From: a virus
IMG/VR virus record: IMGVR_UViG_3300045988_178671
Coordinates: 1-63,082 of that record
Strand: one strand, 5' to 3'
Length of the DNA stretch: 63,082 nucleotides
Of this stretch, positions 1 through 63,082 are shown piece after piece; within the stretch, counting starts at the first letter, position 1, and every line of letters starts with the position of its first letter. A program made the translations under genes and the position numbers. The notes beneath the pieces were generated by a model. That model was not told where the DNA came from. It searched no databases and worked only from the letters and a program-made list of their open reading frames with translations.

Positions 1-1173
1 CACAAAATCAGTAGCGTTTACCAAGGTCGCCCAAGTGGCAGTATCCTTAGCCAATAAATCCAGTAACGCCGATTTGGAAGCATTCGGCACGTTAGACAAA
101 TCCATATTGGCTTTGCCGGATAAAGCACCTGTAAACTCTGCCGCCTGTGCCGTACTAGCGGGCACCGCCGCATTATACGCGCACACCCACGGGTAAAGCG
201 TGGTATGGGCAGGTGTTACGGTATCGCTTGCGCCATATATGGAATTACTTTCAGAGGCAGGGGTGCTATCTTTCCCATACCCGTTTATTGTCGTAAACCA
301 TTCACTTGTTGCCGGGTGTGGATATCCGTTACCTTGCAAGTGGTAATCTCGATTATCATTTTTACCATAAGGTGCTCTGTGCGTATGGTCAGGCAACCCA
401 GCCTTGCCTTGCGTAATGCCATTCGTTTCGTCCGCGCTTTTAATGTAATTTACGAGTTTCGGCAAGCGCAGAGAGCCTGCCACCTCGTCTGCCACATAAT
501 AAGGGCACTCGCCGTAAGCGGACAGGGCTTGGTCGTACTGGGCTTTGGTTTTGCACAGTTCGGGGTGGCTTTTTACCCACGCGTAAAAATCGGGGTACAG
601 CGTGGAGGCGTTGGTGTAGTATTCGCCCGTCCAAAGCGGCAAACAGCCGGGGTTGTCTTTGGCTAATGAGGATTGGCTCCACACTAACTGCCCGATGGCA
701 AGTCCACGGGAATTTTGCGCGCTTTGCGCCGCATCCTGCGCATATTTTTTAGCCGAATAAAGGTCTTCCTCCACCGGGCCGTCTGTTTTGCTAGCCCAGT
801 TTTTAGCGGCCGCAATCTGTTCACTCCCCTCCTTTTGCACCTTACTTACTTGCGCAGTGCCAGCCGCCTCAACAGCCGATACTTGCTCCGCGCCGACAGT
901 TTCTACCGCGGCCTTTTGTGCCGTCCCGGCGGCAGTAACAATTCCAACCTGCTTGGTGCCCTCTGCCGTAATCTTTTCCATTTCGGCCGCACCACTCTGC
1001 TCTGTCAACTGTTTAATGGCCGTTGGAAACTGAATAACATCTTTTTCTGGCTCCATACCAGCCAGTTCTATCGCGCCCTGAATTTCATTTTTGATTTGGT
1101 TGTAATCCGTTGCCTTGATCCGGCTCGGGCTATCAGGTATATATACTGCGTCTACTTTATCATCAATTTTCAT
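1..1173 (-). CDS. Tail fibre / receptor-binding protein of phage A. Partial: the 3' end runs off the left edge (391 codons seen). Its N-terminal Ala/Thr-rich repeats resemble the 61772 ORF. The central region and C-terminus are homologous to the partial fibre at 62207-63082.
   Basis: ATG at 1173 with an AAGGAG RBS embedded in the upstream gene; open frame to position 1; C-terminal 40 aa identical to the right-end ORF. Confidence 0.6.
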   Translation of the reverse strand, partial: MKIDDKVDAVYIPDSPSRIKATDYNQIKNEIQGAIELAGMEPEKDVIQFPTAIKQLTEQSGAAEMEKITAEGTKQVGIVTAAGTAQKAAVETVGAEQVSAVEAAGTAQVSKVQKEGSEQIAAAKNWASKTDGPVEEDLYSAKKYAQDAAQSAQNSRGLAIGQLVWSQSSLAKDNPGCLPLWTGEYYTNASTLYPDFYAWVKSHPELCKTKAQYDQALSAYGECPYYVADEVAGSLRLPKLVNYIKSADETNGITQGKAGLPDHTHRAPYGKNDNRDYHLQGNGYPHPATSEWFTTINGYGKDSTPASESNSIYGASDTVTPAHTTLYPWVCAYNAAVPASTAQAAEFTGALSGKANMDLSNVPNASKSALLDLLAKDTATWATLVNATDFV

Positions 1174-1176
1174 TTC

Positions 1177-3528
1177 TTACTCCTTATAGTCAAGCGGTGT
1201 TGGGAATATGGTTTGATACTCGTAAAATTCTTTTTCCGGCGCGTTGTTTTTGTTGGAAACGTCGCGCAAAGTGTATTTAATCTGCCGTTTGGCAAAATCG
1301 TAATTTAAGCCGGTTATTTTGCACGCGCGGTAAAAGGTGTTTAGCCGCTCGTACTTGGTATAATCGGCGTAATTTGGCGGTACCGTGAGAGGCATTTCGC
1401 GTTGCAGGTTTACCACGTCGCCCAATTCCAATGAAAGGTTAAATTTGCCCGTGCAAGTGATAGTATTTGACAGGGCGGAATAAATCGCCAACAACTGCGG
1501 CCCGATAGCCTGCGCGAGTTCCGGGTTATCGTAGTTTATGATTTGCGGTTTATCAATATCGCGGTTTATCACGCCGTAACGGTCCACGGCGGTCGGCCTG
1601 TCGCCCGTATTGGCGTAAAATTCCAGCGGAATTGCGGCAAAATTAAGCGTGATTTTTGTCGCCAATTCTTTAACATCGCGTTGGACGGTATCTATTTTGA
1701 CCAGTTCTTTTTCGTCCAAAATATAAACCGGGGTGGTGCTAGTGGTGCGCGGGCGGAAGAAAAACACGTTGTTTCGGTCAATGCCGAACTCATAGCCGGA
1801 AATCAGGGCTAAATCTTTAATAACATCAAGTACCGTTTGGCCGGATAGGTCTATAAAGTTTAATGTTATGGCATCGGATAAAAAATAACATCTCGGATAA
1901 TCAATATCAGTTGAAGCATTTGTCGGATGTGTAACTATATTTGTTAGAAATTGGATGTAAACACTATTAACAGATATCCCATTTGCTGAGTCAAATTCAA
2001 TCCAATTTCCCCAATTTACATTGTCATTAGAAATGCGGTATAAGGTGGTATACTGAATATCTTTATTTGAAAAGTCGGCCTTAAAATCACTCCAAACCAC
2101 TGCCGACGAGTTATCTGTTTGTGGCACGAGTAATAAGGCCGGTTTATCCAGAACCGCAATAACTGAACCATTATTATCAAGGGCGGTTAATGAAAAACTA
2201 GACAATGTGCTTCTCCAGTCAAAAACCACGCCCTCGTTTTTTTTATTTGTTGGCATTTCAAAATCTAACTCTTGCGATACCGTAATCCCGTTTATTGTAA
2301 CCGAGTAGTTGTTTCCATTTTTTTCTACTGATACAGAATAATTACGAGTAGAGAATTCATAGCTTCGCACGGTTTGCCCATTTAACCGCCAATACGCAAA
2401 AATCCTAGTGCTTTCTTTATATAGGCATAGTCCACTTACAACACTGTCCTGTAAGTTATACCATCCATTGTGCGTCAAATTACTATTCAAATCTCCAAAA
2501 ACATACGAGCAATCACTGTAATCTATATGGTTTCCACCAAATGACAAATTAATGATAAACCTATTTGGAAATATACTCGTTCTTGCATTAGGTTGATTAA
2601 AATTATTATCTACAACTGTTCCCCAGAAAAAATGGTTTCCGGCGTCCTCAATATAATTTCCATTTTTACCAATAAACCCCAAACTGGCTAAAGCAGATAA
2701 ATTTTTTTCGCTCCTAATTTGGCTGTTAAAAGATACAGAAGATATATCCATATCTTCTACTTGATATCCAGCAACCTGCAAAAGTTCATTTAAGATGTTT
2801 TCAATACTCTTATTTCTTTTCCAGCAGTAATAATCGGCCGTTATGTTCGCACTGTAAAAATCTGCTTTGGTAATTTGTACAAAAGCTACAGAATTAGCCT
2901 CATTAACATTTGACACCTCGTAATCCACGCCATCATACAGTTTGACACCATTTGCATATACCGCATTAAAACCGCCCACGCCCAGGTTAGCCGTTTTGTA
3001 TACGGGTTGATTGTCATCTTCTTTGTGGTCCAGCGTTAAAACTTCGCCCACCACTTTATCGCTGTACTCTTTTGCCTCTACATCATTTAACAGCTCCAAG
3101 GGCGACACCAGCGTCAAAGACAGCTGATACTTTTCCGGCGTATAGTTCGGCAGTGTTTTAATTACACCGCTAAATAAGGGCGTTTTATCGGTTTCTGTCC
3201 CGCAGGAAATATCCACGCGCGACCCATAAATTTGATATCCGGCCGGGAAATAACTTTCCGGCGTTTCTTCCACAAAGTGGTTGTGCGGGTCCGACAGGGT
3301 CAGCGTCATATTGCTTGCCGTAAACTCGCTGATTTCGCCCACGTCTAGTTTAGTGGAAAGCGTGCCCCACTTTACAACCTGTTCCGTAATATCAAGGGGC
3401 GTTTCTTCCAATTTAAAAACGTTCTGTTCCGCGTCCCACTTGTTTCGGTAGAACGTGCAAAATACTTTAAGCTGGCGCAAATCGCCGCTTTTAATAACAG
3501 CAGCCAATTCTGCCGGGATTTCGGTCAT
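1177..3528 (-). CDS. Tail tip / tail-associated (Tal-like) protein, 783 aa
   Basis: Large ORF directly downstream of the TMP-Dit pair in siphovirus order; translationally coupled starts. Confidence 0.5.
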   Translation of the reverse strand: MTEIPAELAAVIKSGDLRQLKVFCTFYRNKWDAEQNVFKLEETPLDITEQVVKWGTLSTKLDVGEISEFTASNMTLTLSDPHNHFVEETPESYFPAGYQIYGSRVDISCGTETDKTPLFSGVIKTLPNYTPEKYQLSLTLVSPLELLNDVEAKEYSDKVVGEVLTLDHKEDDNQPVYKTANLGVGGFNAVYANGVKLYDGVDYEVSNVNEANSVAFVQITKADFYSANITADYYCWKRNKSIENILNELLQVAGYQVEDMDISSVSFNSQIRSEKNLSALASLGFIGKNGNYIEDAGNHFFWGTVVDNNFNQPNARTSIFPNRFIINLSFGGNHIDYSDCSYVFGDLNSNLTHNGWYNLQDSVVSGLCLYKESTRIFAYWRLNGQTVRSYEFSTRNYSVSVEKNGNNYSVTINGITVSQELDFEMPTNKKNEGVVFDWRSTLSSFSLTALDNNGSVIAVLDKPALLLVPQTDNSSAVVWSDFKADFSNKDIQYTTLYRISNDNVNWGNWIEFDSANGISVNSVYIQFLTNIVTHPTNASTDIDYPRCYFLSDAITLNFIDLSGQTVLDVIKDLALISGYEFGIDRNNVFFFRPRTTSTTPVYILDEKELVKIDTVQRDVKELATKITLNFAAIPLEFYANTGDRPTAVDRYGVINRDIDKPQIINYDNPELAQAIGPQLLAIYSALSNTITCTGKFNLSLELGDVVNLQREMPLTVPPNYADYTKYERLNTFYRACKITGLNYDFAKRQIKYTLRDVSNKNNAPEKEFYEYQTIFPTPLDYKE

Positions 3529-4238
3529 AGTTCTTTTGCCTCCAAAGTGGCCGAATACAGGGCCGTTTTTCTATCAACCTCATAGGAAAATTCGGGCGAA
3601 ACATAGCACTCATAGATAGCCGTCGGATCAAAATCCTTAAACGGAATAACCGTCAAGACATTATCTGCCATAATAGCCGCGTTCAGCGCGTCAAACTGCT
3701 CTTGCGGGAGGTTTTCTATTTTGATTTTGGCTTCCCATTTTTGATAATCACCATAAAAAACAATATCGCCCGATAGCGTGCGGTAGCTCCCTTGGTTTGT
3801 TTCCCTCTTAAAGTTTCCGTCAGTAAGGGCGAACAGATCCGTGATGTGGTTAAAAAATCCAATTTGCCCCACTTGCACCTTTTGCGGGTTTCCCTCTGCC
3901 GGAATGGTAATGCGCAAAGAAGAAGTAGTTACAGGCGCGGGGGCCGAGAACATAACCGTAGAGTCCGTATTGCCTTGCACATTGAAAAGTTCCGAATAGT
4001 TACCTGCGCTGTCTGCGGCTTCAATGCTGATATTTTGTAAATTCGTATCGCGCAAAATAAGCGTATCTAGGTTGTGGTTTTTAATCGTACCCCACCTGTC
4101 AGAGAGAAAGAAGGTAAGCGTAAGCGGTAAGGCCACCGTATCAATGTTGTTAAGCTGGCCGGAAATATCGTTTCCGTTTCCGTCCACTACCCGGCGCGAA
4201 AAATTTTGACTTAAAAATATGTAAGGTTTCTTAATCAT
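3525..4238 (-). CDS. Distal tail protein (Dit-like), 237 aa
   Basis: Position between tape measure and tail tip genes; 4-nt overlaps on both sides. Confidence 0.4.
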   Translation of the reverse strand: MIKKPYIFLSQNFSRRVVDGNGNDISGQLNNIDTVALPLTLTFFLSDRWGTIKNHNLDTLILRDTNLQNISIEAADSAGNYSELFNVQGNTDSTVMFSAPAPVTTSSLRITIPAEGNPQKVQVGQIGFFNHITDLFALTDGNFKRETNQGSYRTLSGDIVFYGDYQKWEAKIKIENLPQEQFDALNAAIMADNVLTVIPFKDFDPTAIYECYVSPEFSYEVDRKTALYSATLEAKEL

Positions 4239-6292
4239 ACGCTATACCCGCTTTGTTCGTTGCCCGCTTTAACTGCGACGTTTGCGTATCTTAACGCTTC
4301 CGTAACGCCGTTTTGCGTGGCTTCTGTAAGTTCGTTTAGAAAGGCTGGCAGGCCTCCGTTTGCCGTAACATTTACATTTACCGTAATGGCCCCAGCAAGC
4401 CCGGCGGGGCCGCTTTCTTCCGCGATAGCCCCACCTATGCGGCGCATAGCGCGGCTGTTGTCTAATGGCAGTACAGCTTCATCAGAGCCACCTTCGCCAA
4501 TAACAGCAGGCACGCCACCCGTAACCGCTTTCACTAAACCGCCTTTTGCAAGTTTTACAGCTTCAATTTGCGAAACTAACGCCGCCCCCTGTGCTAATAC
4601 TGTGGCTACAGCCGCAAGGTTTGCCGGGAAGGGTAATTCTAAGGCTTTGGCCGCACCTGTGAACATAGACATAGTGGCCTGAGCAATGCTTGCAACCTTA
4701 CCAACGGCCGCCACCTTTTTATTTTCAGACGAAGCCAAACCCGTAAGAGCCGACCACATAGAGCCATAGACTTGCTGTCTTGCTTGGGCTGATTTTTTGT
4801 CATTGGCAAGGCGTTGGGTGTTGTATTGCTGTTCAAGGTTGCGCAAGGCTTCTTGTTTGAGTGTTTCGTCCGTGATTTCTTGGTCTATGTACTGCTGTTT
4901 AAGTGCGCGCAATTCTTCCAAGCGTTCGGATTCCGCTTCGTATTGCATAACGGCATTTTCTGCCGTAGCTACTTGGCTCGCGCCGCCTGCAAATGTTTCT
5001 AACGGTGTAGGCCCTTTCTCGCTTTCGCTTGCGTTCCTATCCCAGCCTTTCAAATCTTCCGAAGAAGAAAGGCCCATATTATCCAAAATTTCCTGTTGCC
5101 GCTTTAATTCGTCCGTCTTTTCCTTGGTCACTTCAAGCGCTTGTTCTTGCGCTCCGCGCAAAGCGTTAATTTTAGCCGCCTGTGCGTCAAGCCCTGCTTG
5201 CTGTTCTTCCGAAACCTTATTTTCTAACTTGGATAGGTCAAAGATTTCCGTTTTCATTCGGTTTAGAGTAGAAATTTGGCGCACGCCACTTTCCACTTCA
5301 CGCGCCGCGCGTTCTTCTGCGGCTTGCGCCGCCGCTACTTGCTCATCAGATACTAGCTTTATTTTGTTGCCCAGTTCAGCCGCCGCAGTAATTGCTTTTC
5401 GGAAACCCAAAATAATACCATCTACAGCAACCTCAACAGACTTTGCGCCGATGTTTATAAGATCAAAAGTAAGCCCCCAACCGTTAGACAGAATAACAAA
5501 ACCTTTCTGCAACCACTCCATAAGCGTAGTAAGCCGGCCTAAAACGGGTGTAAGCCCTTGGGAAAGCCCTTCGCCTACAAGTTCCTTAAATCCTCCCCAA
5601 GTTTCCTTCAAAACGCCTACCTTGGAAGTCATATCCCCCATAGTAGCCTGCGCGGAAGCCCCGAACTGATCGTTTATTTTTCCTACTACCGCGGCGAATT
5701 TATCGCCCTCTTTTACATTTTCGTCAAGCGTAATTCCATAACGGGAAAGGGCGGAGGTAGATCCTGCGGCTGCGCGAGCGATAAGCATAAGCGCGTTTTC
5801 AAAGTTCATACCTTGGTTAGCAGATAAAGCAAAAGCGGCGCGGATTGCTTCTTGCGCTTCTACACCGACAACTTTGTAATTTGCCAAGGTGCGCTGGGCG
5901 TTTAGGAATGTTTCCCCTGCTAAACCTGTGGAGGCTTCCATTTCATCAGCGAATGCCTTAGCCTGCGCCATAGCCCCGGAAGCAGTATATCCCACATTTT
6001 GAAAGGCCGCGGCAAGCATAGACACGCTTCGGGCGTGTTCTTGGTATTCCGCAATACTGGAAGCAAAGAAATCAATAACGCCCTTTGCGGCGGCCAACGC
6101 ACCCGCAAAGCGCGCCACGCCGGATTGCAAGACATTGAAAGAGTTAGAGCCTTCTTTACCTGCGGTAACGGTTGCTTGGCCCACTTTTTCGGCTTTTTTA
6201 GCAACGGCGTCCATTCCCTTTTTGGCTTCTAGCTCGCCTTTGTTTTCATAGATAGTTTGAATGACTATAACTGCTTTTTCTTCTCCTGCCAT
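4235..6292 (-). CDS. Tail tape measure protein, 685 aa
   Basis: Long Ala/Gly-rich helical protein with coiled-coil segments (EELRALKQQY etc.), downstream of the tail chaperone. Confidence 0.8.
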   Translation of the reverse strand: MAGEEKAVIVIQTIYENKGELEAKKGMDAVAKKAEKVGQATVTAGKEGSNSFNVLQSGVARFAGALAAAKGVIDFFASSIAEYQEHARSVSMLAAAFQNVGYTASGAMAQAKAFADEMEASTGLAGETFLNAQRTLANYKVVGVEAQEAIRAAFALSANQGMNFENALMLIARAAAGSTSALSRYGITLDENVKEGDKFAAVVGKINDQFGASAQATMGDMTSKVGVLKETWGGFKELVGEGLSQGLTPVLGRLTTLMEWLQKGFVILSNGWGLTFDLINIGAKSVEVAVDGIILGFRKAITAAAELGNKIKLVSDEQVAAAQAAEERAAREVESGVRQISTLNRMKTEIFDLSKLENKVSEEQQAGLDAQAAKINALRGAQEQALEVTKEKTDELKRQQEILDNMGLSSSEDLKGWDRNASESEKGPTPLETFAGGASQVATAENAVMQYEAESERLEELRALKQQYIDQEITDETLKQEALRNLEQQYNTQRLANDKKSAQARQQVYGSMWSALTGLASSENKKVAAVGKVASIAQATMSMFTGAAKALELPFPANLAAVATVLAQGAALVSQIEAVKLAKGGLVKAVTGGVPAVIGEGGSDEAVLPLDNSRAMRRIGGAIAEESGPAGLAGAITVNVNVTANGGLPAFLNELTEATQNGVTEALRYANVAVKAGNEQSGYSV

Positions 6293-6460
6293 TGAAAAAA
6301 TCCTTTTTATTCATTACAATATAGGTATGACACTAAACGATATCTTCAAAGCTAATTATGGCAAGGACTGGAAACAAGCCTCTTTTATGGAAAAATTAGA
6401 GGCGGTAGTTTTTGGTGCTATCCTTATCCATTTTTTAGCCGCCTTGCTTCCTTTTAAGTC

Positions 6461-6666
6461 TTAATTGCTTCTGTTCCCTATTTTGAAACCTAGTTTTTTT
6501 AGCGACCCAAGGCTTTCGTTGCCTGTTAGCCGCGTAGTAGGCCCTTTATGCTTCAAGGCCTCTTTTTCCGCCTTTTGCGCTTTGGCCCATTCCAAAACAT
6601 AGGCGTTTATCTGCGTAAGACTTAAATCATCTATTTTCTGCCCGAAAAATTCATTTATTATTTTTG
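6461..6666 (-). CDS. Putative -1 programmed-frameshift extension of the tail assembly chaperone (gpG-T-like fusion product)
   Basis: The -1 frame is open from the 3' end of the chaperone gene to a TAA at 6461-6463. The slippery run CAAAAAUAA lies at the chaperone stop. The translated extension looks protein-like (KIINEFFGQKIDDLSLTQINAYVLEWAKAQKAEKEAL...). Confidence 0.4.
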
Positions 6667-7065
6667 CAACGCCGCCAAACCCTGCGTTAGTTGTGGTATC
6701 GACTGCGTTGCCCGGTAAAAATTTGCAAAAATACGCTCCAAATCATTGACGCACCACACCGCAAGGAGCAAATCGGCAAATTCTGCCAAGGTTACGCGGT
6801 CGGGGTCTATCTGTTTGCCCGGAATGCAAAAGTGCAGGATAACGGGCATTTTAACCAGTAAAGCGCGGTTTAATGCGGTTATATCCCCACCCGCCAGCTT
6901 TACCAGTTCTGTCGCGTTGCCTAACGCCGCGAACAATTCCAACGCCTTGCCCAGTTTAAAGGCTTCTATCACTACCGACTCGCCGCCGATAGTGATAGTT
7001 GCCCGCTTCTTGTTCAAAGCGTCCGTGATGTCTAACTCTTTCTTTGAAGAAAAGAATTTGAACAT
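6658..7065 (-). CDS. Tail assembly chaperone (gpG-like), about 135 aa from the internal Met
   Basis: Sits between the major tail and TMP genes; TAATG overlap with the major tail stop at 7065. Confidence 0.5.
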   Translation of the reverse strand: MFKFFSSKKELDITDALNKKRATITIGGESVVIEAFKLGKALELFAALGNATELVKLAGGDITALNRALLVKMPVILHFCIPGKQIDPDRVTLAEFADLLLAVWCVNDLERIFANFYRATQSIPQLTQGLAALQK

Positions 7066-7595
7066 TAGGCCCCCGCGTAGCTGTCGTTTACAGACATAAA
7101 GCCCGTGTTTTTGCCTTCCGTGGGGCAATTTACGATAGAGCCTTCCAAGGTTACGGTCTGCTGGTCGGTGCGGGACAAAGCGATTTCGCCCGTTCCGTTA
7201 AAGGACACCTTGGCAAAGTAAAATTCGCGGGTTGCTTTTACGCCGCTGTCATTTACTGGACCGTCGGTTTCGATCCATACTTGATAATAGGATTCCTTGG
7301 TTAAAGTAGCGATACCGCTTCCGTCAAGTTCCACGCCAAAGGCTAACGCCAAGTTTTCCGGCGTGATACCTGCCAACGGGATAGACAGCGTGTATTGTGC
7401 GGCCGTAGCAATTTTGCGCACAGGTACCACGCTTTGGTCGACTACTACATCCGTCTTTTCTACCGCCGCCGTTAAGGTTACGCCGCCATTGGTAAAGCCC
7501 AAATCAATAGCGGCCGTTTTTTCCGCGCCAAGCGGCGCAATTTTTACGCTTTTAGCACCGCCTAAAACGGTGTTTTGACATTGCTGTTCTGCCAT
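7065..7595 (-). CDS. Major tail protein, 176 aa
   Basis: Ser/Thr/Gly-rich beta protein in the canonical position upstream of the chaperone and TMP. Confidence 0.6.
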   Translation of the reverse strand: MAEQQCQNTVLGGAKSVKIAPLGAEKTAAIDLGFTNGGVTLTAAVEKTDVVVDQSVVPVRKIATAAQYTLSIPLAGITPENLALAFGVELDGSGIATLTKESYYQVWIETDGPVNDSGVKATREFYFAKVSFNGTGEIALSRTDQQTVTLEGSIVNCPTEGKNTGFMSVNDSYAGA

Positions 7596-7598
7596 TTT

Positions 7599-8036
7599 TT
7601 ACTCTCCTTGCGCTTGTGCGCACTTTGTGAATTGAAAATCAAAACTGACTACGGCGTTTATCGCCTGTTCCGTTTCCAGTTGGAAATTGTTTGTTAACTG
7701 CGCGGGTACTGCGTGGCACTCGCGGATAATAATCCCTTGGGCCATAGCCGAAGAATTAAAGAAACGGTCAAATTTATTAAAAATCGTATAGAGCCGATCT
7801 CGGATAGCCAAAGACTCCGTTTTTGTTTTGGCCCAAAATTCAAAGGTTATATTCTGCTGATATCCCCAAGGCTCATTGTTGGGGTTTGTAGGCTGATCCG
7901 CATAATAAACGATACAGGGCAAATTCCCAGGGTTTGCGTTATCCGGGTATATTTTGCTGTCGCTTTGCGTAGCCCCTAAAATGTTTTGAAGGGGCGTATC
8001 TGCTTTTAGAACGCCGTAAATAATGCTTTCTATCAT
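7599..8036 (-). CDS. Tail completion / tail terminator-like protein, 145 aa
   Basis: Gene order in an HK97-like head-tail joining cluster. Confidence 0.4.
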   Translation of the reverse strand: MIESIIYGVLKADTPLQNILGATQSDSKIYPDNANPGNLPCIVYYADQPTNPNNEPWGYQQNITFEFWAKTKTESLAIRDRLYTIFNKFDRFFNSSAMAQGIIIRECHAVPAQLTNNFQLETEQAINAVVSFDFQFTKCAQAQGE

Positions 8037-8037
8037 C

Positions 8038-8490
8038 TTATGCCCCCTTAGTCTGCGAAGCCCTGTAATGTTGCCAAAATCGCGCTAAAAGTTTATGAGA
8101 ATTATAGATAGGCTCCACATACCAAAGAAACGGTCTGATCCCGTCGCCGTTGTGCCCTTCCAAATACTTAGCGTAGTTAATGGGCGTATTCTTTGCGCCC
8201 GATCCGATTTCGCTTGTTACTTTATTGGCGGCTAACATAATCTTAAAGCCGATACTATTTCTTAGGCGCATAGTGTGGCCGTAAGGCAAAGCACCTTTTG
8301 GGCTGTTGGAATAATTCGGGTCTTTTTGATCCCGTCCGGCACGCTGTGAAAGCCCTTCTTTTAATTTGGTGGATGCTTGGGACGCAAGTTCGCTATGTGC
8401 TTTAACCATAGCGTCAAGCATAGAACGCTCCTTTTGCTCAAGGCGTTGGCGTACCTTCTCAAAATTTTTAGTAGTTAGCCTAATCATCAA
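8038..8490 (-). CDS. HK97 gp10-family tail component protein, 150 aa
   Basis: N-terminus MIRLTTKNFEKVRQRLEQ... typical of HK97 gp10-like proteins. Confidence 0.5.
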   Translation of the reverse strand: MMIRLTTKNFEKVRQRLEQKERSMLDAMVKAHSELASQASTKLKEGLSQRAGRDQKDPNYSNSPKGALPYGHTMRLRNSIGFKIMLAANKVTSEIGSGAKNTPINYAKYLEGHNGDGIRPFLWYVEPIYNSHKLLARFWQHYRASQTKGA

Positions 8491-8821
8491 GTGCCACCCG
8501 TTCTAAATTTACGCGCATATATCTTTTGCGCCCGCCTAAATCGGTTAATTCGGTAATGTTATACTGTTCCCCGCGTACCGCGATAACGTGAAAATGCTTT
8601 TTAAGGTCAAAATCAAGCGGGAATAAATAAATTCTGTCCGTATTGTTCCCCGTTTGTATGCGGCCTGTACGGTCAATGCTACCGCCGCCATTTTGAAAAG
8701 CGCATTTAATGCCCTGCGCCACAGGCTCTAATGTACTTACAGTTTGTCCCGTCGCTTCGTCCTGTCCTTCTACGCGCGCTAAGATGTCGCAGGTATCATT
8801 TAACAGGCCTCTAAAGCTCAT
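8480..8821 (-). CDS. Head closure / head-tail adaptor protein, 113 aa
   Basis: Size and position between the gp6-like connector and the gp10-like protein. Confidence 0.45.
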   Translation of the reverse strand: MSFRGLLNDTCDILARVEGQDEATGQTVSTLEPVAQGIKCAFQNGGGSIDRTGRIQTGNNTDRIYLFPLDFDLKKHFHVIAVRGEQYNITELTDLGGRKRYMRVNLERVALDD

Positions 8822-9372
8822 ATTTTAACTCCGTCAAGCATACCCGCGATAATTTCCGGCACGCCGCGCACCATTGCACCTTTGGTATAGCTATAATCGC
8901 CCAAATGTTCAGAGGCAAAGCCGTTTAATGCGTCGGGATTTGCGTTCCAAGCAAGCAGTTTTTCAGCCGCTTGGCTAAGTAAGGCCGGTGCTTGGGAAAA
9001 GTTATCATAAAGCCCTGCGTTATAGCTTATCTGCGCCGCGGCTATATGGCCCGGGTGTTGTCCACAAAGTAGCTCCACGCTGATTTTTCCTACGGCATAA
9101 TGCCCTTGATACGGTGCATATTCCCCGTCGGCTTTTAAGAAATTGATTTGCGCTACCGAATTAATCGGAGCAAAACGCGGACGCAATACAGACTGCCACC
9201 CATAGGGCAAAGTGATTTTTTCGTCCGTGTAGTCGGTCTTAATAAGCGTGACAGCAAGGTATGCTTCTATCATCTCTTGCACGGCGTTAATCTGCGCCGC
9301 CGCTTCTGCATCAGTTCCGGCCCCGGTAATTTGTTTCACTTTATCTAAGGGAATTAAGTATTCTTGTTCCAT
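8818..9372 (-). CDS. Head-tail connector (gp6-like DNA packaging protein), 184 aa
   Basis: Lies directly downstream of the capsid gene; the N-terminal LDKVKQITGAGTD...EAAAQINAVQEMIEAYL pattern is typical of gp6-like connectors. Confidence 0.55.
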   Translation of the reverse strand: MEQEYLIPLDKVKQITGAGTDAEAAAQINAVQEMIEAYLAVTLIKTDYTDEKITLPYGWQSVLRPRFAPINSVAQINFLKADGEYAPYQGHYAVGKISVELLCGQHPGHIAAAQISYNAGLYDNFSQAPALLSQAAEKLLAWNANPDALNGFASEHLGDYSYTKGAMVRGVPEIIAGMLDGVKI

Positions 9373-9389
9373 ATTGCGCCCGCATTAAA

Positions 9390-9575
9390 TTATTTAGTTC
9401 CAGCCTTGCCGCCATTTTTTTCATCGGCGGATTTTTCGGCTTCCTTCTCTTTCAATTCTTTTACATTCTCAGCGAAGCGTTTAGCGTCCTCGCCGTGAAA
9501 GGCTACTACTGCCCCTTCTTTATAAGGGCCGAAGGCTTTTTTTACTACATATCTTTTAAGGGTAAAATCTTTCAT
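9390..9575 (-). CDS. Small Lys/Glu-rich hypothetical protein, 61 aa
   Basis: ORF between the capsid and connector genes. Confidence 0.3.
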   Translation of the reverse strand: MKDFTLKRYVVKKAFGPYKEGAVVAFHGEDAKRFAENVKELKEKEAEKSADEKNGGKAGTK

Positions 9576-9632
9576 TTTTCTTGCTCCTATATTGGGGCGG
9601 CGTTTTTACCACCGCCCCATAATTGACTAGGC

Positions 9633-10754
9633 TTAGGCGGCCGGAACGGTCGCTTTGGCCCAAACGCTACCGATAACGGTAAGCGCGGCGCGGGACTCAA
9701 AGAGGTAAGCCTCTTTGTTCTCTTGGAAAAGATGATGGGTAGTAGATCCGTCCACCACTTCGGCGGTTTCGCTATATCTGACCGTCATATCCGTTCTCGG
9801 CGAAAAGATAATGTTGTTCAAATCGCCGAACACAGCATTGCGCGCACCGATAAGCGCGGTTTCCACAGGCTCAACGGCAGAGCCGTCAATGCGCATTTCG
9901 CCTTCTTCGTAATACAACCACGCAGGCGCGGCAGAACGACTCAACGAGGCCAATTCACCATAAAGCGCGGTATCGATGAAGAAAGAGCCGCTGGCGCGGA
10001 CGTGATCCGGCACGGCCATTTTAAGGGCCAGCAAGCTGGAAACGGAGGCAACCGTCGGATTAAGAACGCCGGAAGCGGTCAAAATGCCCGGGTTTTCATC
10101 GCCGTTGCCGTTAAAGATCCAGTTGTTGTAGTATTCCACGAAGGCCGGGGCGATAATATCGGGCAATAAGCGGGCCATATCAATCGCGCTATCTTCCGCC
10201 AATTCTTTGGTTAAAACCACGATAGCGGCGGCTTTTACTAATACCTGCGTAAACTGTCCAAACACCGGGTTAGATACGGGTTTAGAAGCACCTTCGCCGA
10301 CTTTGGAAACATTCGGGCGAGCCGCTAAGTTAGGGATTTGGCGGGTGTTACCGTCCAAGCCCCAAGGCAAAATGCGGGTGCGGCTGATGAAAGAAGGCTG
10401 TTTGGCGAGCAAATCAACCAAGGTTGGAACAAAACCTTCCGGCACTAAGTAAGAGCCGGGAGTCGCACCAGCCTGCAAGGCGGCCTTGGTAGCACCAAAG
10501 CGGGCAGCTTTAACATCGTTCAAAAAGGATTTGATTTTGCTGTTCAATTCCTTTTCATCGGCTTTTTTGCCAGCAGGAACAAAAGAAATATCCTGCATAT
10601 TTTTTTGAGAAGCAACCTGCGCTTCCAGTTCCGCTACTTTTTGCATAGCGGCTTTTGCGTTTTCGTCGGACTTGGCGGCGGCGGAAAGCACATCGTCAAG
10701 TTTAGCGTTTAACGCGTCCAGCCCATTTTGGGCGTTTTTCACTTGTTCTTCCAT
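9633..10754 (-). CDS. Major capsid protein, HK97 family, 373 aa, with N-terminal coiled-coil delta domain
   Basis: Coiled-coil N-terminus followed by an HK97-fold-like region; directly downstream of the prohead protease. Confidence 0.8.
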   Translation of the reverse strand: MEEQVKNAQNGLDALNAKLDDVLSAAAKSDENAKAAMQKVAELEAQVASQKNMQDISFVPAGKKADEKELNSKIKSFLNDVKAARFGATKAALQAGATPGSYLVPEGFVPTLVDLLAKQPSFISRTRILPWGLDGNTRQIPNLAARPNVSKVGEGASKPVSNPVFGQFTQVLVKAAAIVVLTKELAEDSAIDMARLLPDIIAPAFVEYYNNWIFNGNGDENPGILTASGVLNPTVASVSSLLALKMAVPDHVRASGSFFIDTALYGELASLSRSAAPAWLYYEEGEMRIDGSAVEPVETALIGARNAVFGDLNNIIFSPRTDMTVRYSETAEVVDGSTTHHLFQENKEAYLFESRAALTVIGSVWAKATVPAA

Positions 10755-10760
10755 TATTAG

Positions 10761-11453
10761 TTACTCCTTGCCCTGTTTCGGGCCTTTAAGTTTTGCTTCA
10801 AACTGTTTGATTTTGTTTTGGGCCTCAAAAACAAACATCTTTTCTAATGCCTGTTCTACCGCTTGCGCTTCTTCGGCTTTGGCTTCGGTGTCCGCTTGCT
10901 TAGCCTCTTGCGCTTGCGGTTTATCCTCGGGTTTTGCGGTTTCCGGCTCCGTGGTTTCTTCCGCGTTTTTTCTTTCGGTAAAAGTAGCGTTAGGGTCTGC
11001 CGGAATTGCCACAAGGGAAATTTCGTAAATTTTGGCGAGGGTCAGGTGGCTTTCGTTTAATTTGTCCTCATAAAACCACGTCCCGCCGATAGAAACTGTT
11101 TTCAAAAACCCTTCTTCAATGAGTTTTCGGGCGTGCGCTACTTCCGGCAAAGCACTATTAGACAGGGTGGCTTCAAAGTAGAGGCCTTTTTCGTCCTCGT
11201 GGATTTCGGTTACACCCCCGGCAATGTTTTTAACGGTTCCCCAATGGTCAAGCATTAAAACAGGATTTTTCTTGTAATCTTCCAATTCATACACATAATT
11301 GCGGCCGAAAGGCATAGGAATGTCCCCGTATCTGTCGGCTACATACTTTGTATTTGCGTACCCGCTAATGCGTACTACGCCGCCCTCAGATACCGCCTTT
11401 ACTTCTGCAATATCGAAGGACTTTTTACCCGTAAAGGTTTTACAGTTTTCCAT
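10761..11453 (-). CDS. Prohead protease (HK97 family) with acidic C-terminal tail, 230 aa
   Basis: HK97 protease-like N-terminal domain (GYANTKYVADRYGD...LDHW); sits between portal and capsid. Confidence 0.75.
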   Translation of the reverse strand: MENCKTFTGKKSFDIAEVKAVSEGGVVRISGYANTKYVADRYGDIPMPFGRNYVYELEDYKKNPVLMLDHWGTVKNIAGGVTEIHEDEKGLYFEATLSNSALPEVAHARKLIEEGFLKTVSIGGTWFYEDKLNESHLTLAKIYEISLVAIPADPNATFTERKNAEETTEPETAKPEDKPQAQEAKQADTEAKAEEAQAVEQALEKMFVFEAQNKIKQFEAKLKGPKQGKE

Positions 11454-13508: not shown

Positions 13509-13511
13509 TTC

Positions 13512-14729
13512 CTATACCGTTAAAAATGTCCTGTTTGCCTGCTTGTCGTACTCATACACCGCGTACCTAACCGCGGCAATAGCGTCATCGTGTTGCTTAT
13601 TTGGCTCTAATTTGTCTAGGTACTCGCCCTGCAAGTTCTTTTTCCATTCGTACCCGTCAAATTCTTCCTGCAAATTCTTACTGTCCTTATGAATAAAAAT
13701 CTTGTACTTTTTAACCGTGTTAATCATTCCTACCACGCCCGCGCGCTTATCTGAGGGGTGTACATTGTAGCCCGCCAAAAAAATATCATCTATGCGATCC
13801 GGCTCCGCGCAGTCTGCTATGATTTCCGTTTCCTTGCTTACTTCGGCCCCGTCCATAAGTTCTATTAGTTCGGTGTTGGTTATGTGCCGTTTATAGAGGA
13901 TTTCTGACAAGTAAACTTCATTCTCTCTAAACTGCGCACGGATTAAGGCCGTAGCGTGGTTATAACCGAAGTCCAGCCCCAAAAATTCACCGTCAAAGTG
14001 TTTTGGTGCCGTACTGTTATCGTACAACTGCCATTTTTCAAATATCCGCCCTTCTGTTTGCCCCCATTCGCCCAGTACAAGCATTTTGTAAAGCCGGGGG
14101 TTTGTTTCCTTCATAGCCAAAAGGCTTTTAACGTATTCCGCAGAAAGAAAGGGATTATCTTTGTAAGTGCTATTAATCAAGGCCACTCCCTTTTGCGGTA
14201 ACAGTTTTGTTTTAATCCAGCCCCTAGCATCGCCGGGGTTAAGGCTTAAAATCGTTTGGTTTTGCTCCCAGCCCTCCGGCTTCGGTGCGCTTAAACGTGT
14301 TAGCAGAAAGCTATAATCGTCATAAGTGAAGTCGGTCGCTTCTTCCAGCCAAATGATATTGAACTCGGTAGATTTAATCTTATCAACGTCATCAAGGCCG
14401 AAAAATAGAATATCGCTTTGCTTTGGGTTTCTATCTTTCAAATCAAACTGGTAAAAGCGTTCCGATTTGTTAAAGTTATCCCTATCATAAACCCCAAAAT
14501 CAGCCAAGGCGGATAAGAATTGCTTTATCACGCTGTGCTGTAAGGTGCTGGCTATTTTGCGGCATATCCCAATATGTAGCCCCGGGTGTTGCAGGGCGTA
14601 GGATATAAGGCATTGCCTGATAGAGTAGCTTTTGCTAGAACGCACGCTTCCAACATTTACAACCGTCGGAGCGGGGTTTCTATAATTCTTTTCAAAGACC
14701 GTAGTACAAGCTATTTTCTTGGCTTGCAT
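13512..14729 (-). CDS. Terminase large subunit, 405 aa
   Basis: Walker A-like VGSVRSSKS; C-terminal nuclease-like acidic residues; directly upstream of the portal. Confidence 0.8.
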   Translation of the reverse strand: MQAKKIACTTVFEKNYRNPAPTVVNVGSVRSSKSYSIRQCLISYALQHPGLHIGICRKIASTLQHSVIKQFLSALADFGVYDRDNFNKSERFYQFDLKDRNPKQSDILFFGLDDVDKIKSTEFNIIWLEEATDFTYDDYSFLLTRLSAPKPEGWEQNQTILSLNPGDARGWIKTKLLPQKGVALINSTYKDNPFLSAEYVKSLLAMKETNPRLYKMLVLGEWGQTEGRIFEKWQLYDNSTAPKHFDGEFLGLDFGYNHATALIRAQFRENEVYLSEILYKRHITNTELIELMDGAEVSKETEIIADCAEPDRIDDIFLAGYNVHPSDKRAGVVGMINTVKKYKIFIHKDSKNLQEEFDGYEWKKNLQGEYLDKLEPNKQHDDAIAAVRYAVYEYDKQANRTFLTV

Positions 14730-14735
14730 AAAACT

Positions 14736-15174: not shown

Positions 15175-15253
15175 TTCAAAGCAGTCAAGGCAAAAAATAT
15201 GCCGAAAAACTGCGAGCTTGCCTAGCTCTTAGTTAATCAGCATTTACAATATC

Positions 15254-16134: not shown

Positions 16135-16142
16135 TTGTCAAA

Positions 16143-48158: not shown

Positions 48159-48766
48159 TGTGTACTGCCAACAACGCTGCCGCCAAAGGCGCGGCCGCTA
48201 CGCAAACGAAAACACCGTTTTATAAGAACCCACAATTTTGGCGCGGTGCCGGGACGGGCCTTGCCATAGGCAGCGGGATTATGGATGCCTCGTCCGCCCT
48301 TTCCAGCGGGCGTGCTGCGGCCGCCAAATACAATGCCCAGGCGTTTGCCGAAGAAAGCCAAGCGGCTTTGGACGAACAGACGGCCGCACGGCAGACTACG
48401 TACGATTTACAGCAGGCGGCCGATCAGGTAAAACAGGTCCGCCGGGCAGGGCGCCAAACCTACGGCAAGCAACTGGCCGCCGCCGTAGCCAGCGGAATGG
48501 ATTTGGCCAGCGGGTCTTTTGAAGATACCGTAAATGACAGTTTGCGCGCGGAGCAGGAAGATATGGAGTATCTTAAACGCACCGTATCTACCCGCGCCAG
48601 CGAACGGGCCTTGCAGGCACAATTAAACACCCTTACGGCCAAAGGGCAAGCCGAGCAAATGCGCATTGCCGGACGGGCCGCCAAAAAGGCTGCACGGCTT
48701 AATAGTTATTCTTCGCTGTTATCTACCGCGGCCAGCGTGGCCGGGATGTGGGGAGGCGCTAAATGA
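48158..48766 (+). CDS. Internal virion protein A (gp14-like), 202 aa
   Basis: T7-like gene order and size; Ala/Gln-rich helical. Confidence 0.4.
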   Translation: MCTANNAAAKGAAATQTKTPFYKNPQFWRGAGTGLAIGSGIMDASSALSSGRAAAAKYNAQAFAEESQAALDEQTAARQTTYDLQQAADQVKQVRRAGRQTYGKQLAAAVASGMDLASGSFEDTVNDSLRAEQEDMEYLKRTVSTRASERALQAQLNTLTAKGQAEQMRIAGRAAKKAARLNSYSSLLSTAASVAGMWGGAK

Positions 48767-60004: not shown

Positions 60005-61138
60005 ATGACCGTATCTAATACCACTACAAAAATAACTTACGTTGGGGACGGAAAAAACCGCACATTTGGGATTCCTTTCCCCATTCTATCCGCCGCGGAT
60101 CTGCGGGTGGTGATAACCGACAGCGAGGGCGTGGAAACCAGTGCAGACGGGCAGTTTACCGTTAATATGGCCCAAAAGCAACTGACGTACCCAACGGTAG
60201 GGAGCCGTGTGCCTACGCTGTCCAAAGACTGCAAAATTACCATTTTGCGCCAAACGCCGCTTACGCAAGACATAGACCTGCAAAGCGGCCACGCATTGGA
60301 CGCCGAAGAACTGGAACGGGGGTTTGACAAACTAACGTATGTATTGCAGGAACTAAGCGAAAAGATGTCCCGCGCGCTGACCTATAAGGTGAGTGAAACA
60401 AACGAACATACAGCCGAGGAGTATTTGAGCAAAATTGCCGCTTCTCTGCAAGCGGCCGCCGGCGCAGCCCAGCAGGCGGCAACCGCGGCTACGCAAGCCA
60501 AAAATGCCGCGCAGGAGGTTTCTTCGTCCGTAAATGAACACAATGCCAGCCAAACAGCACATAATGATTTGCGCAACCTTATTGCCAAGAAGCAAAACAT
60601 CTTAACAGCCGGACCGGGCGTAGATATTACGGACGATATAATTTCCATAACGGGCGCCGGTGGCGGAAACGGTGGAACGGGCATAACGGTAGATAGCACC
60701 CTGGACAGCGAGAGCACCAACCCAGTGCAAAACAAAGTGATTAAAGCCGCCCTGGACGGCAAACAAAAAACCTTAATTCCTGGGCCAAATGTGAGTATTG
60801 CGGCCGACGGAACAATTAATTTTACGGGAGACACGGGAAGCGGAAGCAGCACTGGACTAACCGGGCTAGTGGTATATAACGAGCGAGGTTATAGCAAGGC
60901 AGCCCGAACAGGCAACTTCCGCACCAATATCGGCACCCGGGAATATAAGTTTATCACGTTGGAACTGTGCAACGCAGACGGCACTGTATGGTGCACTCCT
61001 CTGCACTCCGCGGTTGGATACGGGAACAGAAGCGGAAACTTTGCCACCGTTTACTATGCAATTTCTGCCAGCGAATTTGAGGGCAATACGATTTTGGCTG
61101 ACGACACTTACGGGATTAAAATTACCCTCTGGTACTAG
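60005..61138 (+). CDS. Tail fibre protein with a T7 gp17-like N-terminal anchor domain, 377 aa
   Basis: N-terminal TKITYVGDGKNRTFGIPFPIL parallels the gp17 segment LTYQLDGSNRDFNIPFEYL; C-terminal beta domain. Confidence 0.55.
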   Translation: MTVSNTTTKITYVGDGKNRTFGIPFPILSAADLRVVITDSEGVETSADGQFTVNMAQKQLTYPTVGSRVPTLSKDCKITILRQTPLTQDIDLQSGHALDAEELERGFDKLTYVLQELSEKMSRALTYKVSETNEHTAEEYLSKIAASLQAAAGAAQQAATAATQAKNAAQEVSSSVNEHNASQTAHNDLRNLIAKKQNILTAGPGVDITDDIISITGAGGGNGGTGITVDSTLDSESTNPVQNKVIKAALDGKQKTLIPGPNVSIAADGTINFTGDTGSGSSTGLTGLVVYNERGYSKAARTGNFRTNIGTREYKFITLELCNADGTVWCTPLHSAVGYGNRSGNFATVYYAISASEFEGNTILADDTYGIKITLWY

Positions 61139-61147
61139 GAGCCAAAA

Positions 61148-61768
61148 ATGACCGTAGCGAATACAACCACCAAATTACAATACAAGGGCAACGGCGAAAA
61201 CCGCATGTTTGGGATCACGTTTCCGTTGGCGGACGGCAGCCACCTGCGCCTATTTCTAACCACCCCACAAGGAGTGGAAAGCGAAATTACAAAAAATTTT
61301 GCATTTAGCGATACATTGGACAGTGTTACTTATCCGACCTTGGAAAGTGGCATGGAAGCGTTGGCGGACGGATATACGCTGACGCTTTTGCGTCAAACTC
61401 CCCCCACGCAAGAACTTGATTTGCAAAGCGGCCACGCGTTGGATGCCGAAGAACTGGAACGGGGTTTTGACAAATTGACGTGTTTGGTCCAGGAAGCGCA
61501 AGAGCAAATGGCCCGCGCCATTTGTTACCCCGTGAGCGCTGAGGAAAAACCCAGTGCAGAAGGCTTTTTAGAGCAGTTAAACGAACTGAAAGACACGGCT
61601 CAAAAAGCGCAGGCAGAGGCCCAAAAGGCTTTATCCCAAGCCTCCGACTTGAAAGACGAGACCTTGCAAATTGCGCGGTGCGCACGCAATATAGCCGGTG
61701 CGGATGAAGATGTGCCGGTGGATATTGCTATTTTGTTAGACGAGATAAAAGAAACACAGGAGAACTAA
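61148..61768 (+). CDS. Second tail fibre/spike protein sharing the gp17-like N-terminal anchor, 206 aa
   Basis: The first ~110 aa are about 60% identical to the preceding fibre (QSGHALDAEELERGFDKLT shared). Confidence 0.5.
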   Translation: MTVANTTTKLQYKGNGENRMFGITFPLADGSHLRLFLTTPQGVESEITKNFAFSDTLDSVTYPTLESGMEALADGYTLTLLRQTPPTQELDLQSGHALDAEELERGFDKLTCLVQEAQEQMARAICYPVSAEEKPSAEGFLEQLNELKDTAQKAQAEAQKALSQASDLKDETLQIARCARNIAGADEDVPVDIAILLDEIKETQEN

Positions 61769-61771
61769 ATT

Positions 61772-62197
61772 ATGGCAGACGAAACGACTATCTATTCTGC
61801 GAAACATTGGGCGGCCAAGGCGGCTAAAAGCGCTACGGCAGCGGCAGGCAGCAAGGAGGATGTTGCGGCCAACGCTACTGCGGCGGCCACCAGCGCCCAA
61901 ACGGCAAGCGAAAAAGCTGAGGATGCGGCCAGTTCCGCCACCAGCGCGGCGGCGAGTGCGACGGCCGCGGCTGGAAAGGCTACGCAAGCGGCTACTTCGG
62001 CCACCAATGCAGGGCAAAGTGAAACGGCAGCGGCCGCATCGGCTACGAATGCGGCGAACAGTGCCACGGCGGCGTCTAGCAGTGCAACTTCCGCCCAAAC
62101 GGCCCAAACCAAGGCACAGGCTTTGGCCGAATTGTGTAAACAACTGGCCAATGCGCCGGAAGACCAAGCGGTGGATGTTTCCGTGCTGAACAGTTAG
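61772..62197 (+). CDS. Ala/Ser/Thr-rich fibre-associated protein, 141 aa
   Basis: N-terminus IYSAKHWAAKAAKSA is shared with the next ORF and with the phage A fibre; low-complexity ATSA repeats as in side tail fibres. Confidence 0.4.
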   Translation: MADETTIYSAKHWAAKAAKSATAAAGSKEDVAANATAAATSAQTASEKAEDAASSATSAAASATAAAGKATQAATSATNAGQSETAAAASATNAANSATAASSSATSAQTAQTKAQALAELCKQLANAPEDQAVDVSVLNS

Positions 62198-62206
62198 GAG
62201 GGCATT

Positions 62207-63082
62207 ATGAGCGAAGAACAAGTTTATTCTGCCCGGCATTGGGCCGCCAAAGCGGCGGCCAGCGCGCAGGACGCGGCGCAAAGCGCGCAAAATTCCAGTG
62301 GACTTGCTATCGGGCAGTTAGTGTGGAGCCAGTCCTCATTAGCCAAAGACAACCCCGGCTGTTTGCCGCTTTGGACGGGCGAGTATTATCCTAACGCCTC
62401 CACGCTGTACCCCGATTTTTACGCGTGGGTCAAAAGTCACCCTGAACTATGCAAAACCAAGGCAGTTTATGACGAACTGGTAAACACGGCACAGGGGTGT
62501 CTGTTCTATGTGGTGGACGAGGTGGAGGGCTCCTTGCGTTTGCCCAAGTATAAGTTGGGTGGGCGCGTCTTGGTGGATAGCAAACAACCCACAGCAACAT
62601 CCCCTTCTTGGTATAACTTGTATTCTGACGGCTGGCTTGAACAGGGAGCCAGATATGAAACCAACGTAAATATTGAAAATATCACGTTCTTTAAGCCGTT
62701 TGCGAGTGTTCCGTTAGTTTTAACCAGCGTGCAATCAACAAGCAGAACAAGTTATAACGACTTTGGGATTGATGTTTACAATCTAACTACTACTGGTTTT
62801 ACAAAGCAGGATTTGCGTGCTGTTGGTATGGGATGGGGCTGGGAAGCCAAAGGTTATGCCGCGGGTACTCCTATGGGAAATATCAAGTATCCGTGGGTCT
62901 GCGCCTATAACGCCGCTATTCCAGCAAGCACTGCCCAAGCGGCAGAGTTTACAGGGGCGCTTGCCGGCAAAGCCAATATGGATTTGTCTAACGTGCCGAA
63001 TGCTTCCAAATCGGCGTTACTGGATTTATTGGCTAAGGATACTGCCACTTGGGCGACCTTGGTAAACGCTACTGATTTTGTG
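62207..63082 (+). CDS. Tail fibre / receptor-binding protein of phage B. Partial: runs off the right edge (292 codons seen). Homologous to the left-edge fibre.
   Basis: ATG at 62207 with a GGAGGG RBS; open to the window end; N-terminal region and C-terminal 40 aa match the 1-1173 ORF. Confidence 0.6.
   Translation, partial: MSEEQVYSARHWAAKAAASAQDAAQSAQNSSGLAIGQLVWSQSSLAKDNPGCLPLWTGEYYPNASTLYPDFYAWVKSHPELCKTKAVYDELVNTAQGCLFYVVDEVEGSLRLPKYKLGGRVLVDSKQPTATSPSWYNLYSDGWLEQGARYETNVNIENITFFKPFASVPLVLTSVQSTSRTSYNDFGIDVYNLTTTGFTKQDLRAVGMGWGWEAKGYAAGTPMGNIKYPWVCAYNAAIPASTAQAAEFTGALAGKANMDLSNVPNASKSALLDLLAKDTATWATLVNATDFV

Follow-up and report, generated by a model that had tools for sequence, protein, structure and literature searches.

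Two prophages side by side at a tRNA-Ser(CGA) gene of a gut Elusimicrobiaceae species and the tail fibre module they have in common

The IMG/VR virus record IMGVR_UViG_3300045988_178671, a stretch of 63,082 nucleotides which was analyzed over its full length and is called the window in the following, carries two independent prophages, a siphovirus-like one on the left and a podovirus-like one on the right, which lie side by side at one tRNA-Ser(CGA) site. Both run into the window edges within a tail fibre gene, and the 119 bases at either end of the window are exact reverse complements of each other (first mismatch at base 120). Very probably, the window is a MEGAHIT-type contig of two side-by-side tRNA-Ser prophages, which have recently exchanged the tips of their fibres, and whose assembly broke at the repeat. 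The repeat, the two fibre genes, the tandem integration, the modular build of the fibre and hybrid relatives were all observed directly. The host is Candidatus Avelusimicrobium fimicolum (Elusimicrobiaceae), a member of the gut Elusimicrobia; the phosphoenolpyruvate carboxykinase of the flanking host sequence, the right fibre and the right capsid protein match proteins of this name exactly.

The two prophages meet at the 13-nt attachment (att) core CCTCCCTCTCCGT, which represents the 3′ end of the tRNA-Ser(CGA) gene. Other assemblies of the same strain and of relatives show this site occupied by the right phage only (L014, L016, L017, L018, L020, L022, and L023). In these lysogens, the integrase gene intR is followed by approximately 190 bp, the tRNA-Ser(CGA) 3′ end facing the phage, and a host flank with abhydrolase, DUF2157, DUF4401, GDYXXLXY and ParA genes. 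The window agrees with these loci from intR through the last 13 tRNA nucleotides and then continues with sequence unique to the left phage. The switch lies 44 bp downstream of the stop codon of intL, the left-phage integrase gene, and exactly at the core the arm of the left phage takes the place of the tRNA body. The stretch from one integrase gene to the other (26700-27400) was found with 100% identity in seven other assemblies, and two more, with 99.8-100% identity, reach across the core and stop short of intR.

The core is also present at the 3′ end of the tRNA-Ser gene in L017, L042, and L043, at attR in L006 (position 14104), and in the contigs L019 and L038, which have the attP form, with the right end of the right phage joined to intR (L019 11177-11500; L038 3990-4234). 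The right phage therefore exists as an excised circle or as tandem copies in some samples, which suggests that it is active. Immediately left of the core, the two phages have similar bases (left phage, GTACGG; right-phage attP, TTACGG). Between the core and intR, four copies of AAGTGGGGG were found, and a related GGGGGCAAAAATGGGGGC is located on the other attP arm (L006, about 14060-14090); these are probably arm-type integrase binding sites.

For the other side of the double insertion, two contigs are informative. L043 carries the siphovirus-like phage of the window (99.1% identity over 10.6 kb), and in L042 this site is occupied by a different siphovirus-like phage. After the fibre-lysis end, both contigs continue with a small NrdD-like open reading frame (ORF), a terminator hairpin, tRNA-Ser(CGA) and the abhydrolase/DUF2157 flank. 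As the integrase-side ends of these two contigs are out of view, occupancy by a left phage alone is not claimed. The left-phage variant L001 was discarded for the att model, since its phage end comes without tRNA or att core and it represents a variant at another site. A single linear element with terminal inverted repeats was rejected as well, because either half can be found without the other, equipped with an integrase, att sites and host flanks of its own.

The double lysogen would thus be ordered as host flank and tRNA-Ser with the first core, left phage from its lysis end to intL, second core, right phage from intR to its lysis end, third core and a flank with pilin and ABC-transporter genes. 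For recombination, both phages use one and the same 13-bp core in one orientation, namely the 3′ end of the tRNA. Since their genomes are laid out oppositely around this shared core, the integrase genes converge, the late ends point outward, and a segment shared by both phages becomes an inverted repeat. This arrangement resembles tandem polylysogeny at tRNA genes by phages with tyrosine integrases, where the core is the tRNA 3′ end as well, there are three core copies, the tRNA 3′ end is restored by each phage together with a terminator, and related genomes have the site occupied by one phage. The difference is that the two phages of the window are opposite in sense relative to the core, which leads to an inverted instead of a direct repeat.

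An exact match of 119 nt cannot have arisen by chance in 63 kb, and the preliminary description of this DNA was right in taking the window edges for exact inverted repeats. It had also held that the repeat explains why the contig breaks precisely there. The break at the repeat is retained, while the exact length of 119 was set by the assembler. This number is a value in the MEGAHIT k-list, and contigs with k119_ names, the MEGAHIT style for a final k of 119, occur in sister ENA assemblies of the same strain (L009, L012, L018, L042); with k taken from these assemblies, the overlap of the window ends has the length of the largest k. It has been described that MEGAHIT and metaSPAdes contigs which are broken at repeats carry ends of the length maxK, and 119 is listed there in a MEGAHIT k-list (COBRA paper, PMC10914622). 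Taking the sister assemblies and this published rule together, MEGAHIT with a final k of 119 is most likely the assembler of the window. A contig that lies between two inverted copies of a repeat has the first 119 bases of the repeat at both ends, as reverse complements of each other. On this reading, the assembler would not have been able to pass the inverted repeat of about 63 kb spacing, and the contig would have ended after the first 119 shared bases on each side. The length is a property of the assembly and not of the biology, but the repeat itself is no artefact.

The window ends thus share with the contig breaks of de Bruijn assemblers (PMC10914622) the exact overlap of 119 nt, the presence of this value in a MEGAHIT k-list, and the k119_ names of sister contigs. 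In contrast to typical breaks of this kind, both ends of one contig meet the same repeat, and in inverted orientation, which points to an inverted repeat within one genome and neither to a circular genome nor to sequence shared between strains. Contigs L012, L013, L003, and L039 from independent assemblies likewise end within these fibre genes. The junctions of the fibre module may be recurrent assembly break points in these metagenomes.

The sequence beyond the window edges was recovered from other assemblies of the same strain, which were retrieved by exact-protein look-ups. L002 is identical to the window over the left 13.5 kb (100%), and L006, L009, and L010 are identical over the right 11.3 kb (100%); L006 is a 735-kb contig of GCA_902463275.1. 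L002 and L010 turned out to be the two ends of one 64,338-bp scaffold (BRIT16-1 scaffold_284), which carries both phages like the window and agrees with it to 100% in every compared stretch. Past each window edge, 82 further fibre codons are followed by a gene for 117 or 118 amino acids, a holin-like gene for 73 amino acids and a lysozyme gene. The repeat hence continues past both edges, and two complete, separate fibre genes were obtained, which settles the concern, raised in the preliminary description, that a single repeat copy without a second fibre gene might have been attached to both ends by a k-mer artefact.

Counted from where the repeat starts, the first 629 nt are identical between the two ends of the BRIT16 scaffold, after which 5 of the last 45 positions differ. 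The exact identity of the inverted repeats beyond the edges extends over at least 133 nt and possibly 629 nt. When the left-phage variant L001 was compared with the right phage of L006, 87.9% identity was found over 1274 nt, which begin at the fibre C-terminus and include most of the lysozyme gene. The repeat is thus real, is present in two copies, and covers, with about 1.3 kb, the fibre tip and the lysis cassette. In the searches for the left flank of the exact strain, the BRIT16 scaffold was the only place where the full left fibre of 473 amino acids occurred. When metagenomes were scanned with a 42-mer of the left copy, including 4 of the 5 sites which differ from the right copy, the attP-form right phage L038 was the sole match, and the IMG/VR scan for the left flank matched L039, a contig also ending inside the fibre.

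In both phages, the tail module closes with the fibre gene, just ahead of the lysis genes. The left and right fibres have two segments in common. The first, junction block 1 (AQSAQNS...GCLPLWTGEYY...HPELCKTKA), is 73% identical over 112 amino acids in BLASTP and 91% identical over 213 nt of DNA (529-741 vs. 62264-62476). The second, at the window ends, comprises the last 72 visible amino acids of both fibres (90%) and 195 nt of DNA (1-195 vs. 62888-63082, 90%). Between these blocks BLASTP gave no significant alignment, so that the central domains are unrelated, and apart from the two DNA segments no sequence is common to the two window halves. These comparisons agree with the earlier view of both window ends as the 3′ parts of homologous mosaic fibre genes with blocks of about 90% identity and unrelated centers.

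The terminal block is itself composed of two parts. In positions 120-195, the DNA identity between the copies is only 75%, while the protein is conserved, and between 145 and 193 the differences fall almost wholly on every third base, i.e., on synonymous sites. From 119 down to 1, in contrast, there are zero differences between the copies. This pattern of substitutions reveals a sharp boundary at base 120 between old divergence and recent exchange. The linker YPWVCAYNAAxPASTAQAAEF is thus old and kept by selection on the protein, and the terminal segment is identical because it was recently exchanged.

Both full-length fibres were aligned with three relatives (alignment A2). The order of the parts is a phage-specific N-terminus, the junction block, a swappable central domain, the linker, and a swappable C-terminal domain of about 120 amino acids. 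Two unrelated types of central domain and at least three C-terminal types were distinguished (compare L006, L005, and L019), with the joints of the domains at AQSAQNS...CKTKA and at the linker; a modular fibre with two conserved joints is thus also what the full-length proteins show. Neither fibre, nor the 117-aa gene downstream, has a family in Pfam or PHROGs, and the central domain of the right fibre gave a sub-threshold match to an H-type lectin in this search. The AlphaFold model of the full left fibre is of low confidence (mean predicted local distance difference test, pLDDT, 65; predicted template modeling score, pTM, 0.27) and comprises a long N-terminal helix (residues 46-128) and a C-terminal beta domain. 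Foldseek found no match to this model below E = 0.001 in the PDB, just weak C1q/TNF-like jelly-roll matches with E ≥ 0.0076. Based on its position and on this low-confidence model, the C-terminal domain is presumably the receptor-binding one.

An exchange of the distal fibre between the siphovirus-like and the podovirus-like lineage, with crossovers in the conserved blocks, was observed directly in L043. Its fibre of 499 amino acids is of the left type up to junction block 1 and of the right, podovirus type from there on. The right-type stretch extends from the central domain and C-terminus of the fibre over the genes for 118 and 73 amino acids and for lysozyme to a 101-aa gene, with 93.7-95.3% identity; for the central and C-terminal parts of the fibre it is 94.6%. 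This hybrid bears out the earlier proposal that prophages of the siphovirus and podovirus types exchange a receptor-binding module. The shared C-terminal domain and the near-identical lysis cassette would have arisen when the phages recently underwent homologous recombination in the conserved blocks, possibly aided by the RecE/RecT-type genes of the left phage, and the exchange may have taken place between co-resident prophages or between co-replicating genomes after induction. We infer a homologous mechanism that acts at short conserved stretches.

For Rad52-like recombinases of phages, such as Red-beta of lambda and RecT of phi80, experiments have shown that they bring about exchanges of this kind when lambda or phi80 meets resident prophages, side tail fibre genes included and with sequences up to 12% diverged (PMC3945230). 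In this way, lambda exchanges stf/tfa with the Rac and Qin prophages (PMC3945230). Mosaic tail fibre genes exchanged among unrelated phages are the subject of two works which PMC3945230 cites (Haggard-Ljungquist, 1992; Sandmeier, 1994), with P2 H, Mu S, P1 S, and lambda stf as examples. As in these phages, short conserved blocks flank swappable distal domains in the window, the same module is found on different tail types, a hybrid has its crossover inside a conserved block (L043), and the left phage has its own pair of RecT and exonuclease, a module which could drive the mosaicism. The present case differs in the uncultivated Elusimicrobiota host, in a fibre without a Pfam or PHROG family, and in a shared module that reaches from the fibre tip into the lysis cassette.

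Chromosomal inversions mediated by prophages are known in other bacteria, e.g., Escherichia coli O157 and Streptococcus pyogenes M3. With these, the window has in common the inverted homologous segments of two prophages on one chromosome, whereas no inversion isomer was observed here and the segment between the repeats consists of just the two prophages. It is conceivable, but unlikely, that the inverted repeats are active, so that the 63-kb block flips or the copies homogenize by gene conversion, and a mixed population yields hybrid phages. The exact repeats of at least 133 nt and possibly 629 nt speak for this, as do the RecT and exonuclease genes of the left phage and the crossover of L043 in junction block 1. 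Moreover, a haplotype of 14 sites (offsets 133-246) is common to both BRIT16 copies, while 5 of 5 right-phage-only lysogens have a different one. This haplotype may reflect real gene conversion in the double lysogen, but it may equally be due to bubble-popping by the assembler, as the alleles would form a bubble of equal length with about 96% identity. With respect to a flip, no contig with inverted linkage was present among the loci from the contig look-ups, in which short-read contigs cannot cross the repeat, and every right-type fibre with a readable downstream host flank (L004, L006, L007) adjoins the pilin/ABC-transporter flank. The hybrid end of L043 still adjoins tRNA-Ser, so that a double exchange or a succession of two inversions is required instead of one inversion, and an exchange during co-replication after induction accounts for hybrids without any chromosomal inversion. 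An inversion of the 63-kb block is possible, and nothing supports it. That the resident prophages actively recombine, in that one fibre tip and lysis cassette overwrote the other or the block flips, is considered rather improbable.

Three further explanations of the repeat or of the contig have very little probability. A pure assembly artefact, with one repeat copy joined to both contig ends and no second fibre gene, would fit the repeat length, which equals a standard assembler k, and the ends of the BRIT16 scaffold may be collapsed. However, the two genes differ in their N-termini, their central domains, and their synonymous sites right up to base 120, and each phage occurs by itself with an intact fibre, the lysis cassette and a host flank of its own (right phage, L006 and L017; left phage, L043). 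As both genes need a 3′ end, two copies must exist, and such an artefact is highly improbable. Just as improbable is a chimeric contig, in which phages from different cells were joined in silico at the shared att region, despite the fact that both phages have the same core with about 60 adjoining nucleotides alike and occur singly in other samples. The flank of the core on the intL side belongs to the left phage only, and the shared core of 13 nt is far below any final k, so that real reads must span the junction. In addition, the contigs with the identical stretch between the integrase genes have names which point to SPAdes (NODE_), to MEGAHIT-style k127 and to a scaffolded assembly. Least probable of all is a programmed invertible fibre switch of the type of the Mu G segment, the P1 C segment, or p15B Min, which inverted repeats inside fibre genes with alternative variable domains might call to mind. 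Those systems (Gin/Cin/Pin) have a serine invertase and short sites. Here, the repeat spans the 3′ ends of two complete genes of two phages, 62.8 kb apart, and is not a short crossover site at which one constant 5′ part meets alternative 3′ parts over a distance of a few kb. No serine invertase or resolvase was among the precomputed Pfam or PHROG matches of the genes examined, with some small ORFs of the right-phage early region being unannotated.

Several points weigh against the reading of the window as a broken contig of two tRNA-Ser prophages with exchanged fibre tips. The contig name and the assembler of the window itself were not seen, so that its k of 119 comes from the sister assemblies. 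On the left side, the sequence of the exact strain is visible for just 555 nt (L002), and the left tRNA-Ser junction is deduced from the relatives L043 and L042. The 629-nt identity of the copies, with the 14 sites at offsets 133-246, may be due to gene conversion or to bubble-collapse. Finally, the receptor-binding role draws on gene position, on a model with a pLDDT of 65, and on weak fold matches with E ≥ 0.0076.

The remaining gene content of the two prophages was assigned by PHROG and Pfam matches (Table 1). The left late operon also codes for the large terminase, portal, protease, head-tail adaptor, tail terminator and major tail protein, and the left early operon comprises genes for an AAA ATPase, exonuclease, RecT, a replication initiator, a DnaC-like loader and IntL. 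The layout of the left phage is unusual, as one strand carries all late genes together with the CI-like repressor, and the other carries all early genes, including the integrase gene at the far end.

In the right phage, a polyvalent protein of 3139 amino acids occupies the position of an internal virion or ejection protein; in relatives, its versions have 2093-3139 amino acids. A low-GC stretch lies at about 52-54 kb, with a diverged 60-nt repeat at 53255 and 53915. Within the ORF of the replication initiator, four iteron-like copies of TGGTTCAAAAwwTGAACCA were identified at 35323-35426, which probably constitute the replication origin of the right phage. On the lysogeny side, a gene for an outer-membrane beta-barrel protein of 317 amino acids (PF13505; 28641-29594) adjoins intR and possibly serves lysogenic conversion. 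Some small ORFs in the early region of the right phage are without annotation, and the variants L014, L016, and L020 carry Sequestin, Lar, and methyltransferase genes in this region. Furthermore, an Acb2/Tad1-hairpin gene, directed against the cyclic oligonucleotide-based anti-phage signaling system (anti-CBASS), and a small NrdD-like ORF are located 3′ of the lysozyme gene in L006 (12571-14060), adjoining attR.

Table 1. Coordinates of the two prophages, their genes and the shared segments in the window.
Feature	Position	Strand	Remark
Left prophage, siphovirus-like	1-26982		PHROG and Pfam matches
Left fibre gene	1-1173	-	ATG at 1173, runs off the edge; 391 of 473 codons; full protein P0001 from L002, identical to window
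Exact terminal inverted repeat, left copy	1-119	-	encodes ...GKANMDLSNVPNASKSALLDLLAKDTATWATLVNATDFV of left fibre
Linker YPWVCAYNAAxPASTAQAAEF, left copy	120-195	-	C-terminal domain variants switch here
Junction block 1 (AQDAAQSAQNS...HPELCKTKA), left copy	529-741	-	91% vs. 62264-62476; crossover of L043 here
Late operon, left prophage	1177-18323	-	
Distal tail protein, large	1177-3528	-	left prophage; one of two
Distal tail protein, large	3525-4238	-	left prophage; one of two
Tape measure	4235-6292	-	left prophage
Major head protein	9633-10754	-	left prophage
Small terminase	14736-15188	-	left prophage
Helix-turn-helix (HTH) antitoxin gene	15382-15756		left prophage, between repressor and small terminase
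Gp49/HigB-like toxin gene	15749-16072		left prophage, between repressor and small terminase
CI-like repressor	17688-18323	-	left prophage
Early operon, left prophage	18746-26938	+	
Exonuclease	21401-22270	+	left prophage; phrog_412
RecT	22273-23124	+	left prophage
Tyrosine integrase IntL	25796-26938	+	PF00589, phrog_1
att core CCTCCCTCTCCGT, middle copy	26983-26995	+	last 13 nt of tRNA-Ser(CGA); junction of the two prophages
Right prophage, podovirus-like	26996-63082		PHROG and Pfam matches
Four copies of AAGTGGGGG	27112-27179	+	between core and intR
Tyrosine integrase IntR	27183-28358	-	33% identical to IntL; PF00589, phrog_1
Early and late genes, right prophage	30117-62197	+	
Replication initiator	34874-36016	+	right prophage
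Large terminase	38157-39524	+	right prophage
Portal/adaptor	39868-41529	+	right prophage
Major head protein	42618-43601	+	right prophage
Tail tubular proteins	43973-47703	+	right prophage
Internal virion proteins	47700-48766	+	right prophage
Polyvalent protein, 3139 aa	50574-59993	+	MuF_C, LPD5, LPD1 domains
Fibre-like proteins	60005-61138, 61148-61768, 61772-62197	+	tail-fibre PHROG matches across 60005-62197
Right fibre gene	62207-63082	+	runs off the edge; 292 of 374 codons; full protein from L006, L009, L010, identical to window
Junction block 1, right copy	62264-62476	+	
Linker YPWVCAYNAAxPASTAQAAEF, right copy	62888-62963	+	
Exact terminal inverted repeat, right copy	62964-63082	+	

A genome scan revealed four loci, two in Avelusimicrobium/Elusimicrobium metagenome-assembled genomes and two in metagenome-assembled genomes labelled Muribaculaceae bacterium and uncultured Spirochaetes bacterium. 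With megablast, neither half of the window had a match among 50,697 phage records, and in the literature no dedicated description of temperate phages of this gut Elusimicrobiaceae species was found. Fibre mosaicism, tandem polylysogeny at tRNA genes, and contig breaks at repeats are known phenomena, and in this respect the finding is real but ordinary. New are only the setting, temperate phages of the Elusimicrobiaceae, and a fibre family outside Pfam and PHROGs, and the current understanding of phage mosaicism is left unchanged by any of these findings.

In practical terms, a terminal inverted repeat with the length of an assembler k signals a contig which was broken at an inverted repeat within one genome, and it should not be taken for a biological terminal repeat. 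If the two resident prophages do recombine actively, the siphovirus-like and podovirus-like pair would be a permanent source of host-range hybrids like L043, and this in a phylum whose phages are practically unstudied. Independent of this, the window provides a well-anchored example of fibre exchange between a siphovirus-like and a podovirus-like phage, with both partners in tandem at one tRNA-Ser site and with defined recombination blocks.

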